DNA of 64,000 bases from a virus (lineage: Duplodnaviria > Caudoviricetes), in the IMG/VR virus record IMGVR_UViG_3300028887_000070, positions 32,001-96,000 of that record; one strand, given 5' to 3'. Below are positions 15,519 to 60,000 of the stretch, in pieces. The notes beneath the pieces are model-generated. The model was not told the origin of the DNA and made no database searches. It worked only from the letters and a program-made list of their open reading frames with translations. Both the position numbers and the translations under genes were made by a program. Within the stretch, counting starts at the first letter, position 1, and each line of letters begins with the position of its first letter.

Positions 15519-15580
15519 ATTATATACTATAGATGAGTCCAGAGCATCACTATACCGCTCTGGTTAAGGAGGATATACAT

Positions 15581-53500: not shown

Positions 53501-53818
53501 ATGATAGTCATGAGTGGTTATCCATTCTTTTACCTCTGCTGTTTCAGGGTATGGCTGTTGGCCATTAAGCTGTCTATAGTAGTTGTTCAGCTCATCATAA
53601 GCTTCTTCGAGATAGTCTGACTCTTTGATAAGACCAGCCTTGTATCGAATCAGCTCATCAGAGTTTCTACGAGACTCAAGTGTCTCATGTTTGAGAGCAT
53701 CTCGTTCATTCTTGACTACGGAGTTGATAGCCATGTTCTTGGTATCTCTGACAACAAGGTCGATATAGGGGTTATCAGTAAACTTCATGTCATACTGAAA
53801 CGAGTAATGTCCGCCCAT
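50534..53818 (-). CDS. Large baseplate wedge-like virion protein with C-terminal BspA-cap-like segment
   Basis: ELNNYYRQLNG, LIKNINEILKYKST, DPFW, IINFFKSW; late promoter 53849-53860. Confidence 0.65.
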   Translation of the reverse strand: MGGHYSFQYDMKFTDNPYIDLVVRDTKNMAINSVVKNERDALKHETLESRRNSDELIRYKAGLIKESDYLEEAYDELNNYYRQLNGQQPYPETAEVKEWITTHDYHGVISADEYDALMQELNATKYVPLQRYKDEGYITREANLTVFNNVGIGYYDPDTGDYDPDVVNKYQYIHEIQKDYNAEGPDGELARKILDWLDPDLDPADNQAWEIYRDVSEIGENSRRNINILDIMKQDYTGPDFKYLYHLREKAIDPYTARIAPDFSLLYCPKPTLKFGATNTEFPIYYKFLRYFDRNREYTITTMYSDAYAVGSEHYEDVLIIFLLIQTMIDLIAEVQEYIINKDIFDSRTIRYLFESYGIEYYKEIPMNYQIKLIKNINEILKYKSTNKNIMDIKNLFGRDDIEIFTYWILKTKKKDRANFKYYTEDDIGQPICPGSNIPVTEDMIGLEKYYENYDLAFLRVPIEDQNADKYIENASLRRSYDTITREDPFWDGLSRDEIMSETERDNYHQRKTNEILTQDFSCERTKYICVDSAIDSTKYLYQTMYFMNMVFDAMTNSDEILRATDALMVNIDTFISPNQVRLNDLLALMIALSYLYNGVEADNIASSMEANMTINGFDFSQDWSQVYDRIIDLFNTYSNYTQPGTGEKVYLDDVLENPEQFFEYVEEGVKIRENAFLCGRYEPNAIDPGSRIFQDLKNHKIDDFFEGFYEISYLDGGIIKKKAYFKVHDDATAEGLWSKAHPTSVHNAVVAGKYDPEDVFPIEDTTRFGHIVDISYHPYEFVRNTEADFMNAYHTNDEDPTAIQTIQTFEKLKEIYYTNVKLREHLVYMMKHAESKKEYDVYRILYESFMETQNDFTFFTVDEEGTPHVAETYYEFLSDRDAHLADILNTARNYSSIDDRRTYINQVCEYVVYALEAYFDSSEWVYLYNLIPSHNQEYVRDWIVKIINFFKSWKTQLIDTSSVFSIDDDSDTTGNRVHILDNLNKNGAHFFFEKCSTYDTPVLKSTFGFRDKVDITERVKFFRKYSYYQTTELDFIYAIENGEVRLIRYISNYNKIRLPEEIQGYPCTMIDATCFMADVVIECEIPDCYRTIV

Positions 53819-53923
53819 AGCAGTGCACTCCTTTCTCTAGTTTGATTTTACTGAGATGTTGAGGGTAGCGCGAATGACGCAAATGGAGGGATGCCTAGTG
53901 CATCCCTCTCACTTGTTCCTATC

Positions 53924-54388
53924 CTATATACCTGTTTGACCATTGTGCTCCATAACGAAGTTGGTCACTCTAAAGTATACTCTCTTAGCTATGATATCGG
54001 TAATAGCCTCTTCATTGTAGAGGATACATAGCTGTTCATAGAGAGCTTCTGAAAGTCTTTGCGATACAAGAGTACAGATGTCCTTGTTGATCTGTATCTC
54101 TTCCTCTTCTTTGATATAATAGTCACTCTTGTAAGCAATATTGAGGATAGTGAACTCCTCAAAACATTGCTCTACTACAAGATCAAGCTTCTCATCTATC
54201 TTGTTATCGATGTCGATTGTGGTGATATGCTTGTATCTTTCAAGTGCTATCTGACTATCCTTGCTTTTAGCCCATGCTAGTAATGCTTTCTTCACTATAC
54301 TCCTGAATGACAGGAGGTAGATCATACTAAAAACAATAAGGACTTTGAGCAGGAAGTGTAGTGATATGGCTGGCATAAGTTCTTTCAC
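53924..54388 (-). CDS. Membrane protein, hypothetical
   Basis: N-terminal hydrophobic segment; start uncertain. Confidence 0.65.
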   Translation of the reverse strand: MKELMPAISLHFLLKVLIVFSMIYLLSFRSIVKKALLAWAKSKDSQIALERYKHITTIDIDNKIDEKLDLVVEQCFEEFTILNIAYKSDYYIKEEEEIQINKDICTLVSQRLSEALYEQLCILYNEEAITDIIAKRVYFRVTNFVMEHNGQTGI

Positions 54389-55052
54389 TCCAATTCTTTA
54401 CTTCTTCAGCTACTTCGAGAAGACCATCGTCTACCGAGTCTCCCTCTTCGTAAGCTGTACGTATATAATAGAGCACCTTAGTACAGATGTCTGGAGTTAT
54501 GCCATTATAGTATCTCTTGAAGAGTTCTGTCCACTTTCCAAACACCTGGTTGGGGTGAGTATAAAAGTTATCAGCGTTATGATAGAGCTGATGCACTGTC
54601 TTACTCATCATAACTATTGGTACCATGTTGTTTGCATGAGCGAATCTGAGCTCTGCTACTACGTGAGGTACCGATACGTAACCATAGGTATTAAGAAAGT
54701 GTTCGGTGATCATAACTGTAATGTCAAAGATTGTAAGAATACAGTGGTTCATCTCCAACGTAGCCATGTTCGAATCGATATTGTGCAGTACTTGACAGTG
54801 GTCAAGACCCATCTCCATCAAGTATGCTTTATAGTTCTTATAGAATCTAAGGCCTCTGAAGAGATTGATAACACTATGTATGAATCTGTTATAGAGGTCT
54901 ACGTCAACCATTGAGTCTTTAGTCTGCATCATAGGGAGTTCATATGGTGAGCTAGGAGAACACAACGTAGGGTTGCCGTTATTAAGGTATGCTGTTACAT
55001 CAGGGAATGGCTGTCCATTGCCCATATAAGTGAGGTCTAATGTCTCATTCAT
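54327..55052 (-). CDS. Conserved jumbo-phage protein with HNH-like His/Cys pattern
   Basis: CQV..NID...LEMNH...H...V..V..S.T.HQLYH; late promoter 55078-55089. Confidence 0.55.
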   Translation of the reverse strand: MNETLDLTYMGNGQPFPDVTAYLNNGNPTLCSPSSPYELPMMQTKDSMVDVDLYNRFIHSVINLFRGLRFYKNYKAYLMEMGLDHCQVLHNIDSNMATLEMNHCILTIFDITVMITEHFLNTYGYVSVPHVVAELRFAHANNMVPIVMMSKTVHQLYHNADNFYTHPNQVFGKWTELFKRYYNGITPDICTKVLYYIRTAYEEGDSVDDGLLEVAEEVKNWSERTYASHITTLPAQSPYCF

Positions 55053-55094
55053 ATCTATGCCTCCTTTAAGCACGTATTATAAGATAGTTTGAGG

Positions 55095-55305
55095 CAAAAG
55101 AGAGGAGGAGGCCTGTTAAGCCTCCTCAAAGGGGGTGAAGGGTTCGGTAGAGCCAAATCAAGCACCACTTGAAGATTGGATGTCGCTACGCCAAACGACA
55201 ACCGAGGGCTCAATAGGCAATACATGATTGAACCGATAGCTAGAAATGAGTAAATGAATGTGTTAAATAATCCGATAGCGGGACGAATCCGTCAACATCC
55301 CGCTC
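55095..55305 (-). ncRNA. Stand-alone late small RNA (~210 nt)
   Basis: AACA-CTATAG-TG promoter (55305-55316), 5' stem agcggga/tcccgct, internal stems, terminator gaggaggc/gcctcctc + U-tract; no RBS-led ORF seen. Confidence 0.6.
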
Positions 55306-55333
55306 ACTATAGTGTTGTGAGTGGTGTAAAGTA

Positions 55334-55777
55334 CTACTCAGATTCCTTAACACTTGTCTTCTTTACGTCAATGATAGCGAGTAATTCCTCTGATGATACA
55401 GCAATATCGCTATTGAGAGGTCTGACGTAGATAGAATGAATCTTTCTAAAGTCTTGTAGCGCCTTGAACACGTCCTTATCGAACTCACAATGAAGTCCGA
55501 TGTTATACCCCTTAATGAACATGAACAATCTCACTATTCCCCACAAATCATCCCTAAAGAATGACAGACTTGCTTGCTTATCAATGATGATCTTTTGAAG
55601 TTGGGGAGTAGATTTGGCTTTGAAGTAGCGTTCCATCAGCTTAACACAAATGTCATGCTGATCTTCATATGAGTCAAAACCGTGTGTTGGTATATACCCC
55701 ATGCGCTTCATACAGAAACGGATAAAGGAATCCTTACCGTTCTTGTCAATGAAGCTATGAGCCTTATTGATAGACAT
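55334..55777 (-). CDS. Hypothetical protein with degenerate peptidoglycan-binding-like C-terminal domain
   Basis: KGYNIG...EFD....KALQDFRKIHSI resembles PG_binding_1; late promoter 55802-55813. Confidence 0.5.
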   Translation of the reverse strand: MSINKAHSFIDKNGKDSFIRFCMKRMGYIPTHGFDSYEDQHDICVKLMERYFKAKSTPQLQKIIIDKQASLSFFRDDLWGIVRLFMFIKGYNIGLHCEFDKDVFKALQDFRKIHSIYVRPLNSDIAVSSEELLAIIDVKKTSVKESE

Positions 55778-55873
55778 AAACAGTCCCTCCTTTAAAGTGA
55801 TTATAGAATGGTTACGGAGGGAGTAATGAGCAGCAATGACAGAGGGAGGCTATTGCCCCCCTCCGTATATATG

Positions 55874-57001
55874 TCACTTGATGTCAGATACTGAGATCCA
55901 ACCAGTTACATAATTGCCGATAGGTGTTTTGCCTACGTTGCTAAGAGTATTGGTGATTCTGATGCGTCCGTTAAGTACTTTGCTGTCATAGAGATAGAAA
56001 GTACCAGACTTCTTACCAGAAGGATTCTTAGCAGTAGACGATGTGTAGAGATCAGCACTGGAAAGATTAACTTTCTGACCTGCTGCTATAGTAAGTGCTG
56101 ATGATGCAGTCTCTTCCTTCTTAGCTTCCTGGACAGGAGCTGTTGCAGATGTAGGAGCAACTATCCAACCAGTAACGTAGTTACCAATAGGAGTCTTTCC
56201 TATATTAGCTTCCGAGTTGGTGATACGAATACGTCCGTTGACTACCTTATCATCATACTTGTAGAATGTTCCAGTCTTGGTGCCAGAAGCATTCTTAGCA
56301 GTAGACGATGTGTAGAGAGGAGTATTGTTGAGCTGGAGAAGATTCGGGTTGGTTGTAGGTGTCTGAGTAGGCTGCTGAACAGTCTTAGGCTCTTCCTTAG
56401 GCTGCTCTACTACAGGCTTAGCACCCTTGATCTTTGCAGGGTAGTCTACATAGCAGTAGTCTCCATCAACTTCTCCTACGATTCCAGGAATCCTGAGAGT
56501 CCAGCTATACTGCCATATAGTATGACCAGTATAAGGAGTCTTGTTTACTCCTACATGAGCGATCCAGACATCGTATGTGTTCTTGATCTGGGTGGATATT
56601 ACCTTGGACATGTCGTAGAATGTGTAGAGACCTACGTAATATCCTGCAGCTTTAACCTTTTCAAGGAATGCAGGAATGATCTCATTCACAATGCCTCTCT
56701 GTTTTCCTTCCTCTACGTCGTAGAAGAGAGGGTAGTCGAATGTCTTACCCTTTATAGCCTGAAGGAAACAGTCAGCTTCTATGCGAGCCTCTGCAGCAGA
56801 CATAGCATAAGAATACCAGTAAGTACCAACCATGAGTCCAGCAGCTTTAGCACCAGCATAGTACTCTTCGAACTTCCTGTCCTTTTGTGAGATAAGTCTA
56901 CCATATCCAGCGCGTATGATGACAAAGTCAATACCAGACTGCTTTACAGCATTCCAGTTTACATTGCCCTGGAAGTATGAGACGTCTATACCTCTGTACA
57001 T
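55874..57001 (-). CDS. Endolysin, GH25 muramidase with two C-terminal cell-wall-binding repeats
   Basis: GIDVSYFQG, FVIIRAGYG, FYDVE, WIAH, WQYS, GEVDGD; two LYTSSTAKN...NGRIRITN...GNYVTGWI repeats. Confidence 0.95.
   Translation of the reverse strand: MYRGIDVSYFQGNVNWNAVKQSGIDFVIIRAGYGRLISQKDRKFEEYYAGAKAAGLMVGTYWYSYAMSAAEARIEADCFLQAIKGKTFDYPLFYDVEEGKQRGIVNEIIPAFLEKVKAAGYYVGLYTFYDMSKVISTQIKNTYDVWIAHVGVNKTPYTGHTIWQYSWTLRIPGIVGEVDGDYCYVDYPAKIKGAKPVVEQPKEEPKTVQQPTQTPTTNPNLLQLNNTPLYTSSTAKNASGTKTGTFYKYDDKVVNGRIRITNSEANIGKTPIGNYVTGWIVAPTSATAPVQEAKKEETASSALTIAAGQKVNLSSADLYTSSTAKNPSGKKSGTFYLYDSKVLNGRIRITNTLSNVGKTPIGNYVTGWISVSDIK
55890..56330 (-). repeat. Duplicated cell-wall-binding domain in endolysin
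   Basis: 28-nt identical block attcttagcagtagacgatgtgtagaga at 56024-56051 and 56291-56318. Confidence 0.85.
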
Positions 57002-57072
57002 AGTGTAACCTCCTTTGCGGTTAATATTATATGAATGTTTAGGGGCCTACATTGTAGACCCCTAAATATCGC

Positions 57073-60000
57073 TTAGAATGAAGGATCATCTCCTACAACG
57101 GTCATAGAAGTGATTCTTCCCTTAGCATCAAATACACAAACGAACTCCTTACCATCATTACTGTCAATAGTAGTGTCAGTGTAGAGTCCTGAGTATCCTG
57201 AAGCAGAAGGATTGTATATCGGAACCTTACCATCATCAGTACCAGATATAGTGAGAGTGTCATCCCATCTAAATGTGAGTACTCTTGTAGTTGATCTAAG
57301 GATTCCTTCCTCCGCCGTTGCATAGTAAAGACCATCAACGTAATCATTTGAGAACTTGGTATCCGATGTATTGAATACTGAGCTAATCTTAGAAGCTGCA
57401 GAAGATGAATGGTGACCAGAGATCTTGAAGAATCCGAGTGCAAGAGGAGCCTTTCTTCCTTCTACAGAACCAGTAGTCTCTTCCCTTTCAGCAATGTAGT
57501 GGTAGAAGACCTTTCTGTTGAGTATCTCTTGGAATCCAGACTTGATATAGAATCTGTGATTAGCAGTGTCTATCTCTATACGAGCTGGATATCCAGCTAT
57601 GAATACTATAGGAGCAGTCAGCGACATATCTGCTAATCTTTCTATAAGTCCGTCTTCAGTATTAACCTCGTCGAATGCTATTCCTGTAGCATCATGAGAC
57701 TGTTTAACTACCTTAAACATGAATGCTTCATACCTTACAGGCTCAGAATCTCCAGTAAGATAGTCAGCAGCTATGTCAGTAAGTCCCTTGAATGATGCTC
57801 CTAAGATAGGACAGATAACAGGAAGTATTGTATCTACTTCTTTACCCATAGATCCAGTGTTAGCATCGATATACCAGTATGCTGGAAGTGTAGAGATGTC
57901 TATAATCATTGAGTCTGACCAGAACGCCTTAGCCCAGTTATATCTATCGTAACCTTCGATAGCCATACCAGTACTTGTACCGTCTGAGTTGTAGATCATA
58001 GCGTAACCAGTTGTAGCTTGTCTATTATGCTCTTCTAACTTACGATTAGACTTAGCATAACGCTTCATTCCTGCAAGAGGACCAGCTATGTCTATACTTC
58101 TATTAGAACTAAGTCCTAACAGAAGATCCTTCCAGTTGATAGTATCAGCTTCAATAAGATCTACACCAGTACCAGTAAGAAGAAGCTTATCACCATTCTC
58201 ATCAGTTAGCGAAAGTGCAGTTACCTTCTTCAGACCAGTAGTAACTTTAGCCACATTGATTCTGTTAGCCTCATTTACTGAGTAGTCTATAGTAGGATCA
58301 GTCTTGTCTCTGAGGAATGTATCTATACCACCATGAGGATGATCTGATGTTACATTGAACTCATACATTGCTGTTGTAGAATATGAGTTCTCTGCTTGCC
58401 AAGTGATCGCAGTGTTTGCATCAAAGAAGCTCATCTTAGTATTGATAGTTTCAAAGTTTCTATTTTGATCTGTGATTTTGGCTTTACCCTGTCCATTACC
58501 TATATCCTTAGTAAAGAGATCATACATGAAATCATACAGACTTCTGTACTTAGTCTTACTTGCATCAGTATAGATGAACTTCTCGTCGATACCTCTGTTG
58601 TACATAGCCATCTTCTCAAGAGCAGTAGACTCATTTCTGTCGAAGAGTTTCCAACAGTCTATAGTCTTAAACCACTTCTGGAAGTCGATTCCGTACTGTG
58701 TATCTGGACGAGGAGGGAACTCATTCATCCTAGGTACTCTTGGATAAGGACAGCTAGGCTGATAGAATGCTATTGATGAAGGAACAACTTGAACCACAGA
58801 GTATGGGAACAGTCTTACACCTCTAGGTCTTATGATATACTTATTTCTATCACAAGTAACACTCTCCCAAGAACTTGTTGAAGCGTTCCATATATGCTGA
58901 ACGAGATTCTCTTGATAGAATACATCGTTCTGTTGTACATCTGTAGAACCAGGAGATGCAGGAGTAAAGTGAAGTGTGATAGATCTCTCGTACCAACCAT
59001 AAGTCTTATGTGCATCATCATCCTGACCAGTGTAGTAATAGAGTGTCTTATCCACTGCAGCAGTCTTATAAGCCTCATACATAGTCTTAGTTACTACTGT
59101 AGTAAACTCTCTATCCTCAAAGAGTCGGAAGGAATCTATGTGCATTTCATCTACACCAAGATTCTGTACTACACTGATAGGACGTATTATCTGTCCAGGG
59201 TTACCATTTGCGGCAAACTCAGCACGAATGAACTCTTGGAGTATGAATACAGTAACACGTTCATAAAGTATTTCCTTAGTATCAAAGTTAACCATGTGAG
59301 GATACTCTACATGAAGCTTACGTACTGAGAAGAAGTTTCTACCTGTGTCACCATAGTTGTTGATGAAGTGAGGTACCACATCAAAGTTAGATATCTCGTA
59401 CTCGAATGTGTACTTTGGAGTAGCAAGATTGGTTCCTATGAGAAACTTAGCGTTATCCTGTGAGTAATCAAGTTGTATTTCAGAAGTGAAAGTTGTACCA
59501 TGACTACTGTCATCAAGCTTGTATACAATATCTTCGATGTCCTCGGCGATATGAACAACTCTGAAGTTAAACATAACCTCTTTACATTGGTCTTCGGAGA
59601 TACCTGTAGCTGTCTTGATATCTTCAATGATGCTATCAGACATCAAGTAAGTTGCTGTACAATGACGGTCATCTGTAGTAGGTGTAACAGATGTCTTGTC
59701 GAAAGGATCGATTGTAGAAGAGAGTTCTACGAACTGATCGTCATTAGAACCAAACAGGCCATTGCCGCTACCAGCAAGCACGAGATGACTATTTGAAGGA
59801 TTGCTGAACATATCTATTCCAATGTTCTTGCTACCATTAGCTCCAGTATTCCACCAATGAGTAGTGATGTATGGAGCATAGTCAGAGTTCTCTATATTGA
59901 TCTCAGTGTTTACACCATTGATCTTGAAGCTTATTGGTCTCTGAGACGTAAGAGATATGTAGTTATCTACGTCTCTTACAGGAACGAACTTAATACCTTG

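Follow-up and report, generated by a model that had tools for sequence, protein, structure and literature searches.

The locus examined here raises the question of what occupies the gap between two minus-strand genes of a virus when no protein seems to be encoded there. The stretch analysed (the window) comprises 64,000 nucleotides, bases 32001-96000 of a 231,846-bp IMG/VR virus record, and all coordinates without a prefix refer to it. A sequence-only reading of the window had proposed that the gap holds a stand-alone late non-coding RNA of about 210 nt. The analysis reported below makes it probable, though far from certain, that the gap contains a late non-coding RNA gene of ~209 nt that is specific to its lineage and transcribed independently.

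Genes of the window include a large terminase, a GroEL-like chaperonin and a split multisubunit RNA polymerase. The RNA polymerase β′ homologue shows ~31% amino acid identity to those of the Bacillus phages BpSp and Goe21 (the latter an AR9/PBS1-type phage), Staphylococcus phage S6 and Listeria phage LPJP1; therefore the genome, judging from this gene, counts as a remote member of the AR9-like jumbo phage group of Firmicutes. Near-identical DNA occurs in bovine-gut metagenome runs, and a blastn search against the phage collection returned no DNA match. Nearly every gene of the genome is preceded by a strong AAGGAGG ribosome-binding site, with the Shine-Dalgarno (SD) sequence given as AAAGGAGG. 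The features of the locus are the following:

55874-57001: GH25 endolysin gene, one gene away upstream
55334-55777, minus strand: upstream gene, 147 aa, no family, with its own late promoter
55305-55316, minus strand: late promoter-like motif AACA-CTATAG-T-G, which fits the AR9 late consensus (AACA 55316-55313, CTATAG 55312-55307, T 55306, G 55305); predicted start G55305
55277-55304, minus strand: 5′-terminal hairpin from +2, 9 bp with a 10-nt loop in the predicted fold (arms AGCGGGA 55304-55298 and UCCCGCU 55283-55277)
55245-55276, minus strand: linker 1, A/U-rich, predicted unpaired, hypervariable with indels
55268-55242, minus strand: unpaired A/U-rich stretch of the sequence-only reading
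55141-55244, minus strand: conserved core, an irregular hairpin of ~104 nt (the 'rod') with a GGUUC/GAACC closure, GC-richer (RNAalifold consensus)
55234-55227 and 55214-55207, minus strand: hairpin of the sequence-only reading, GGUUCAAU able to pair with AUUGAGCC
55205-55201 and 55148-55144, minus strand: closing helix of the same reading, UCGGU able to pair with ACCGA
55142-55131, minus strand: C-rich tract, entire CCCUUCACCCCC
55128-55140, minus strand: linker 2, which bears the C-rich tract
55095-55127, minus strand: strong intrinsic terminator, a GC-rich 10-bp stem (55127-55105) followed by CUCUCUUUUG
55078-55089, minus strand: late promoter of the next gene, AACT-ATCTTA-T-A, start 55078, unchanged across the window and L008 clades
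54327-55052, minus strand: downstream gene, 241 aa, phrog_12252, weak HNH-like fold, SD present, ATG at 55052

All features named by the sequence-only reading were present at these minus-strand positions, among them the promoter of the next gene, where the AACT-N6-TA motif puts the start at 55078. The predicted RNA begins at G55305 and is ~209 nt long. In the RNAalifold consensus its rod is capped by the hairpin UGUCGUU/AGCGACA and interrupted by an internal loop of 9 nt, AAUCUUCAA. The terminator is kept in all seven sister sequences, with a 1-nt indel in its loop.

According to passages of the AR9 study (PMC5312081), late promoters of that phage read AACA-(6N)-TA/G, with the final base as the transcription start, and early promoters read AAATATATATTAT-(6N)-G. 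In the present genome, ~57 sites of the form AAC[A/C/T]-N6-TA(A) were located 15-45 nt ahead of start codons. Promoters of another class, TATATA(C/T)TATAG, are similar to the early motif of AR9, that of its virion RNA polymerase, and occur in gaps before genes, at 15523, 31398 and 47136 (plus strand) and 1397 (minus strand) of the window and at more places outside it, in some cases in tandem with a late motif.

The AACA-CTATAG-TG motif that had been taken for a late promoter of the element was found where it had been placed, and it agrees with the late consensus in those AR9 passages (PMC5312081). Its position weight matrix score is 7.0 versus a median of 13.7 for the 57 gene-proximal late sites, which were all chosen with TA, whereas the motif of the element has TG; its genome-wide rank is 158. 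Sites that score as well occur about once per 3 kb, which gives a roughly 9% chance of finding one in the gap. The motif, AACACTATAGTG, is nevertheless unchanged in all seven sequences of the window clade and in the L008 clade, and the bases on either side of it vary. The standing of this promoter thus derives from its preservation amid varying flanks in the sister phages, not from the match score alone. Most sister sequences have another late-like motif, AACACTTTACTA, whose start lies 20 nt upstream of that of AACACTATAGTG; it is found at L003:2717-2746 and at the equivalent place in L002, L017, L022 and L025. The window has lost this motif and reads GTAGTACTTTACAC.

The gap of the window contains no SD-preceded open reading frame of at least 8 codons on either strand. 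A coding element was rejected: the longest frame, of 56 aa (55055-55225), lacks an SD and is interrupted in L004, where the loss of one nucleotide and the gain of another shift it, and there was no other candidate. Indels in the sister phages break every frame, and no residual similarity to an open reading frame was found in the element. A scan of the 64-kb window with 4227 Rfam models, including pRNA, 6S, tracrRNA, HEARO, riboswitches and ribozymes, gave no match at the gathering threshold; for the 401-nt region at E ≤ 10 the best models were snoRNAs, with 9-16 bits against the 41-80 needed. ARAGORN detected no tRNA or tmRNA in the window. Both scans and the lack of an SD-preceded frame agree with the earlier view of a non-coding RNA of no recognised family. 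Searches of the 231.8-kb genome for paralogues with blastn-short, nhmmer and a covariance model of the rod (R1) found none, and the element is single-copy. With no reading frame, an AR9-type late promoter motif, a terminator of its own and a separate promoter for the next gene, the element has the predicted layout of a stand-alone unit, as had been proposed.

The neighbourhood was described earlier as 'beside the lysis genes'. This applies loosely, to the GH25 endolysin one gene away, but for the adjoining 147-aa protein neither a family match nor a hydrophobic segment was found. No terminator separates the stop codon of the 147-aa gene (55334) from the RNA unit; therefore, read-through transcripts of this gene must also cover the element, which is thereby also the tail of that mRNA. 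Among relatives the gene upstream of the slot is swapped, for an unrelated 155-aa gene in one case (L025:76-543) and, in the clade with 65% identity, for a gene of 129-140 aa on the opposite strand (L011-L016:1806-2233); the endolysin of the latter clade gains a Peptidase_M15 domain. The downstream 241-aa protein is a homologue of AR9 g261. Structurally, its model (pLDDT 78) comes closest to the GVE2 HNH endonuclease (Z 5.4, rmsd 2.9, 87 residues aligned), several further HNH nucleases are among the lower matches, and C86, E100, H103, D110, E117, H118, H139, H154 and H158 are invariant in 35 homologues. Foldseek gave no significant match for this protein, and we regard its likeness to HNH proteins as a weak lead, short of an assignment.

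Six further distinct copies of the RNA (L002, L003, L004, L017, L022 and L025) were collected with the downstream protein as anchor and one DNA pattern scan. The flanking-protein identity was 95-96% where measured (L002, L003, L004 and L017); L022 and L025 came from the DNA scan. In comparison with the most distant copy, L004, identity is 0.93 for the 5′ hairpin and 0.87 for the rod, 0.16 for linker 1 and 0.47 for linker 2 with its C-rich tract, and 0.66 and 0.63 for the four-fold degenerate sites of the 241-aa and 147-aa genes, respectively. Across the sister sequences the 5′ hairpin is 93-97% identical, loop included, with GC<->GU exchanges as its sole changes, and the rod is 87-96% identical with an invariant block of 32 nt. 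The linkers range from 0.16 to 0.61 and contain indels; linker 2 stands at ~0.5, and the C-rich tract of L022 reads CACCUCU instead of CACCCCC. The 5′ hairpin and the rod thus change more slowly than the four-fold degenerate sites of both flanking genes, and both linkers change at or above that rate. Selective constraint, as estimated from these identities, is on the 5′ hairpin and the rod and not on the single-stranded linkers, which suggests that the RNA acts by its folded shape and not by the pairing of an anti-SD seed. In L025 an intact, identical RNA unit with its promoter motif stands behind the different 155-aa gene. The unit keeps its place before the downstream gene where the upstream gene has been exchanged, and its presence behind another gene speaks against its being a 3′ tail dedicated to the 147-aa gene.

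The predicted fold of the element has an energy of -61.8 kcal/mol (z = -2.2), and 4 of 200 dinucleotide shuffles folded as well. The RNAalifold consensus consists of the 5′ hairpin, a single long irregular hairpin with the GGUUC/GAACC closure, and the terminator. Over this structure of 49 pairs, 31 of them in the rod, 97.9% of the cells pair in the seven sequences, and the GGUUC/GAACC closure is kept in all rows but the misaligned L022. Compensatory double changes number zero; all eight extra pair types are one-sided wobble changes (GC/GU/AU), and every substitution at a predicted pair leaves it able to pair. The covariation test, in which all 500 shuffles equalled the observed values, had an alignment of seven sequences that is too shallow for power. 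The sense and antisense strands fold about equally well (-61.0 versus -59.9), so the orientation of the element is taken from the terminator U-tract and the promoter. Part of the fold proposed earlier fits equally well, namely the GGUUCAAU/AUUGAGCC hairpin, which is just as able to pair; the multibranch domain closed by ucggu/accga does not, since its central pair is lost in six of the seven sequences and the closing helix exists in the window only. Two alternative folds both fit the data, and the modelled rod is a plausible one.

Outside the window clade, the 241-aa protein has homologues at 83%, 77%, 76%, 74% and 65% identity, with a gap of 200-380 nt ahead of every one. The RNA slot stands before the 241-aa gene in all gut and rumen clades, in the same orientation. 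In each of the five clades the gap opens with AAC[A/C/T]-N6-T[G/A] directly followed by a hairpin, and a conserved AACTATNTNNTAA promoter stands before the 241-aa gene; a GC-rich terminator ends the gap in four of the five (L008, L010, L019 and L020), the L011 clade being without one. All of these gaps fold better than mononucleotide shuffles (z from -1.9 to -4.9). Their inner sequence cannot be aligned between clades. Searched against the syntenic gaps of the five other clades and AR9, covariance model R1 gave a best E of 0.8, on the wrong strand or in the wrong place. In an all-against-all blastn comparison of the clade RNAs, the sole shared word was the 14-nt GAUUAUUUAACACA, which lies in linker 1 of the window and elsewhere in the RNA of the L008 clade. 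That clade shares the element promoter AACACTATAGTGAG and the next promoter exactly, and differs inside, where its sequence looks like a replacement. In L016 a masked run of N (approximately L016:2347-2381) falls inside the syntenic gap, and other members of its clade are normal there. AR9 and BpSp have only ~60 nt at the position of the slot (57 nt upstream of g261 in AR9), and the slot is therefore specific to the gut and rumen group.

It is a speculative and rather improbable extension of these findings that the slot is a hypervariable 'RNA cassette' locus, in which a conserved late promoter and a terminator would frame stable folded RNAs that are swapped or quickly remade from one phage clade to another. 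Such RNAs might act as decoys for proteins of host defence or RNA processing, or as partners of the adjacent HNH-like protein, an idea that we hold with equally little confidence. A locus of this kind, if real, would be the RNA equivalent of accessory islands of anti-defence genes.

The genome was scanned for more units built in this way, namely for gaps of at least 140 nt with a late motif, no SD after the motif and a terminator. Further candidates lie at window-relative positions 76011(+), 117587(+), 126540(+) and 126910(-). Each begins with a stem at +1 or a few bases from it, and two are conserved in sister genomes. No motif of at least 7 nt is shared by three or more of the five candidate late RNAs of the genome. 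The second ORF-free late unit (L031:1-386; G000:C1:149555-149940; window-relative 117576-117870, plus strand, outside the window) comprises AACATATCATTG, a near-perfect hairpin of ~140 nt from +1, a tail of ~70 nt, a terminator and, for the gene that follows, a late promoter of its own; two sister genomes match the unit at 85-94% identity over the 3′ two-thirds and the first 62 nt, and nt 63-147 are unmatched. The third (L030:1-271; G000:C1:107970-108240; window-relative 76011 onward, plus strand) has AACAATATAGTA, then a closed multi-stem RNA of ~100 nt, a AUCCCCUUA tract and a terminator, and is 79-82% identical in two sister genomes. The only tRNA of the genome, a tRNA-Gln with a UUG anticodon on the minus strand, lies in a 389-nt gap (L032:1-411; G000:C1:158520-158930), which also holds two hairpin-first candidate units, one per strand. 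A late-type motif, AACTTTACTATA, is found ~10 nt before the 5′ end of the tRNA-Gln gene; thus, late-type promoters occur before a bona fide stable-RNA gene in this genome.

RNA libraries from wastewater and activated sludge contain a ~92% relative as assembled contigs, which either span the entire 3.3 kb (53800-57100) or miss the element, and which by their nature are unable to show transcript ends or level. Relatives of this 'bovine gut' phage are thus also present in sewage samples, as DNA carry-over or as transcripts. Two bovine RNA runs yielded two reads each, outside the element. The linkers, the internal loop and the apical part of the rod formed no better predicted duplexes with 200-odd phage initiation regions than shuffled segments did, and the complementarity of the element to the whole genome is at chance level. 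When exact 22-mers, one per rod strand, were compared with 185,579 bacterial and archaeal genomes in a scan for host mimicry limited to exact words, one had no hit and the other a single chance hit in an Algoriphagus ORF.

The main rival to a stand-alone RNA is a structured 3′ tail or intercistronic spacer without a promoter of its own. Transcripts of the 147-aa gene, with or without the endolysin, would run through the gap and stop at the terminator, and the rod and terminator would guard the mRNA 3′ end or act as a processing site, insulating the next late unit. We consider both the tail itself and this protective or insulating role unlikely, yet worth keeping in view: nothing terminates transcription between the stop codon at 55334 and the element, the promoter scores only 7.0 against the median of 13.7, and the genome often has a terminator followed by the next gene's promoter. 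However, the same RNA follows a different upstream gene in L025, the L011 clade has its upstream gene on the opposite strand, the AACA-N6-TG motif and the adjoining hairpin are kept while the surrounding bases vary, and a 5′-terminal hairpin has no evident role inside such a tail. The remaining option for the gap as a whole, a functionless relic left by the decay of a gene or mobile element where recombination is frequent, accords with the replacement of the inner sequence between clades and the swapping of upstream genes; it is very improbable, as the rod and 5′ hairpin evolve more slowly than the four-fold degenerate sites of both neighbours and retain no ORF similarity.

Two further explanations accept a transcript but assign it another role. 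The sequence-only reading had favoured a trans-acting small RNA with C-rich anti-SD seeds, in which the C-rich tract (CACCCCC) or the A/U-rich linker would pair with SD regions of host or phage. A C/U-rich tract does lie just ahead of the terminator in the window clade, L010 has UCACCCC, similar CCCC tracts occur in other candidate RNAs of the genome, and the SD of the genome is AAAGGAGG. This proposal was not borne out, at least for phage targets: the C-rich tract and the A/U linker are the fastest-changing parts and carry indels, L022 has CACCUCU, the L008 clade is without a C-tract, and no phage target among the 200-odd initiation regions exceeds the shuffled level, with genome-wide complementarity at chance. 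We hold it to be improbable. Less probable still is a cis-acting leader of the downstream late genes (an attenuator, a riboswitch or a processive-antitermination RNA), in which the rod would decide whether the polymerase passes the terminator into the HNH-like gene, as in lambda PR′-6S/Q or HK022 put. The unit is always directly upstream of the same gene in the same orientation, in the order promoter, conserved fold, terminator, gene, but a conserved late promoter stands between terminator and SD in every clade, no alternative antiterminator pairing is evident, Rfam has no matching riboswitch or leader family, and the homologous gene of AR9 and BpSp is expressed with no leader of this kind.

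The reading we prefer remains the independently transcribed late RNA. The non-virion RNA polymerase of the phage would start at G55305 of an AR9-type late promoter (AACA-N6-TG), and the transcript would carry a hairpin at +2 and end at the strong intrinsic terminator (55127-55095). The non-virion RNA polymerase of AR9 requires template DNA that contains uracil, which may hold for this phage as well. In a Firmicute-type host, this hairpin-first design closed by a terminator could make the RNA long-lived and abundant late in infection, and the selected 5′ hairpin and ~104-nt rod may bind a protein. Action through the folded rod, with the RNA serving a protein as decoy, scaffold or partner, is the most likely mode, although any particular mode of action is rated far below the existence of a discrete, independently started RNA. 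Promoter use, the discrete transcript, its stability and its mode of action are what we infer from the sequences compared here.

To our knowledge, few phage non-coding RNAs have a known function, and none has been described for AR9-like jumbo phages, whose transcription is carried out by their own machinery. If real, the element would be a defined non-message product of a phage polymerase that is conserved in one lineage and replaced at the same slot in sister lineages, and the several units of the same build in the genome would form a small testable set bearing on the roles of stable late RNAs as decoy, scaffold or regulator. As the phage is uncultivated, the element is for now of value as a catalogued candidate.

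Among known systems, the pRNA of phi29 (RF00044) is likewise phage-encoded, non-coding, folded and ~170-210 nt long. It keeps its position and architecture while its sequence diverges strongly between related phages, and it is transcribed early, in small podoviruses whose genome is protein-primed. The element differs from it in having no Rfam match even at E 10, and the weakly HNH-like neighbour gene is its one link to packaging. Firmicute C-rich sRNAs of the RsaE/RoxS type share with the window RNA a single-stranded C-rich tract beside the terminator and probably a host with strong SD sequences, but the tract of the window is not conserved, and neither a family match nor an outstanding target was found. 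The late units of AR9 have the same promoter grammar, including the G start, and AR9 belongs to the same phage group, with split multisubunit RNA polymerase genes at ~31% amino acid identity and a similar early promoter class; the AR9 passages (PMC5312081) mention no stand-alone late non-coding RNA, and promoter use in the present phage is deduced from sequence. RNA anti-CRISPRs are identified through homology to repeats or tracrRNA of the host (bioRxiv 10.64898/2026.06.03.729762), whereas the rod 22-mers have no meaningful match in the 185,579 genomes, a weak negative obtained with exact words. Like the element, however, RNA anti-CRISPRs (solitary-repeat Racrs and rAcrIIA1) are small phage RNAs with their own promoter in an intergenic gap, and the likeness extends to quick turnover and to a variable segment with a long duplex and 3′ hairpins after it.
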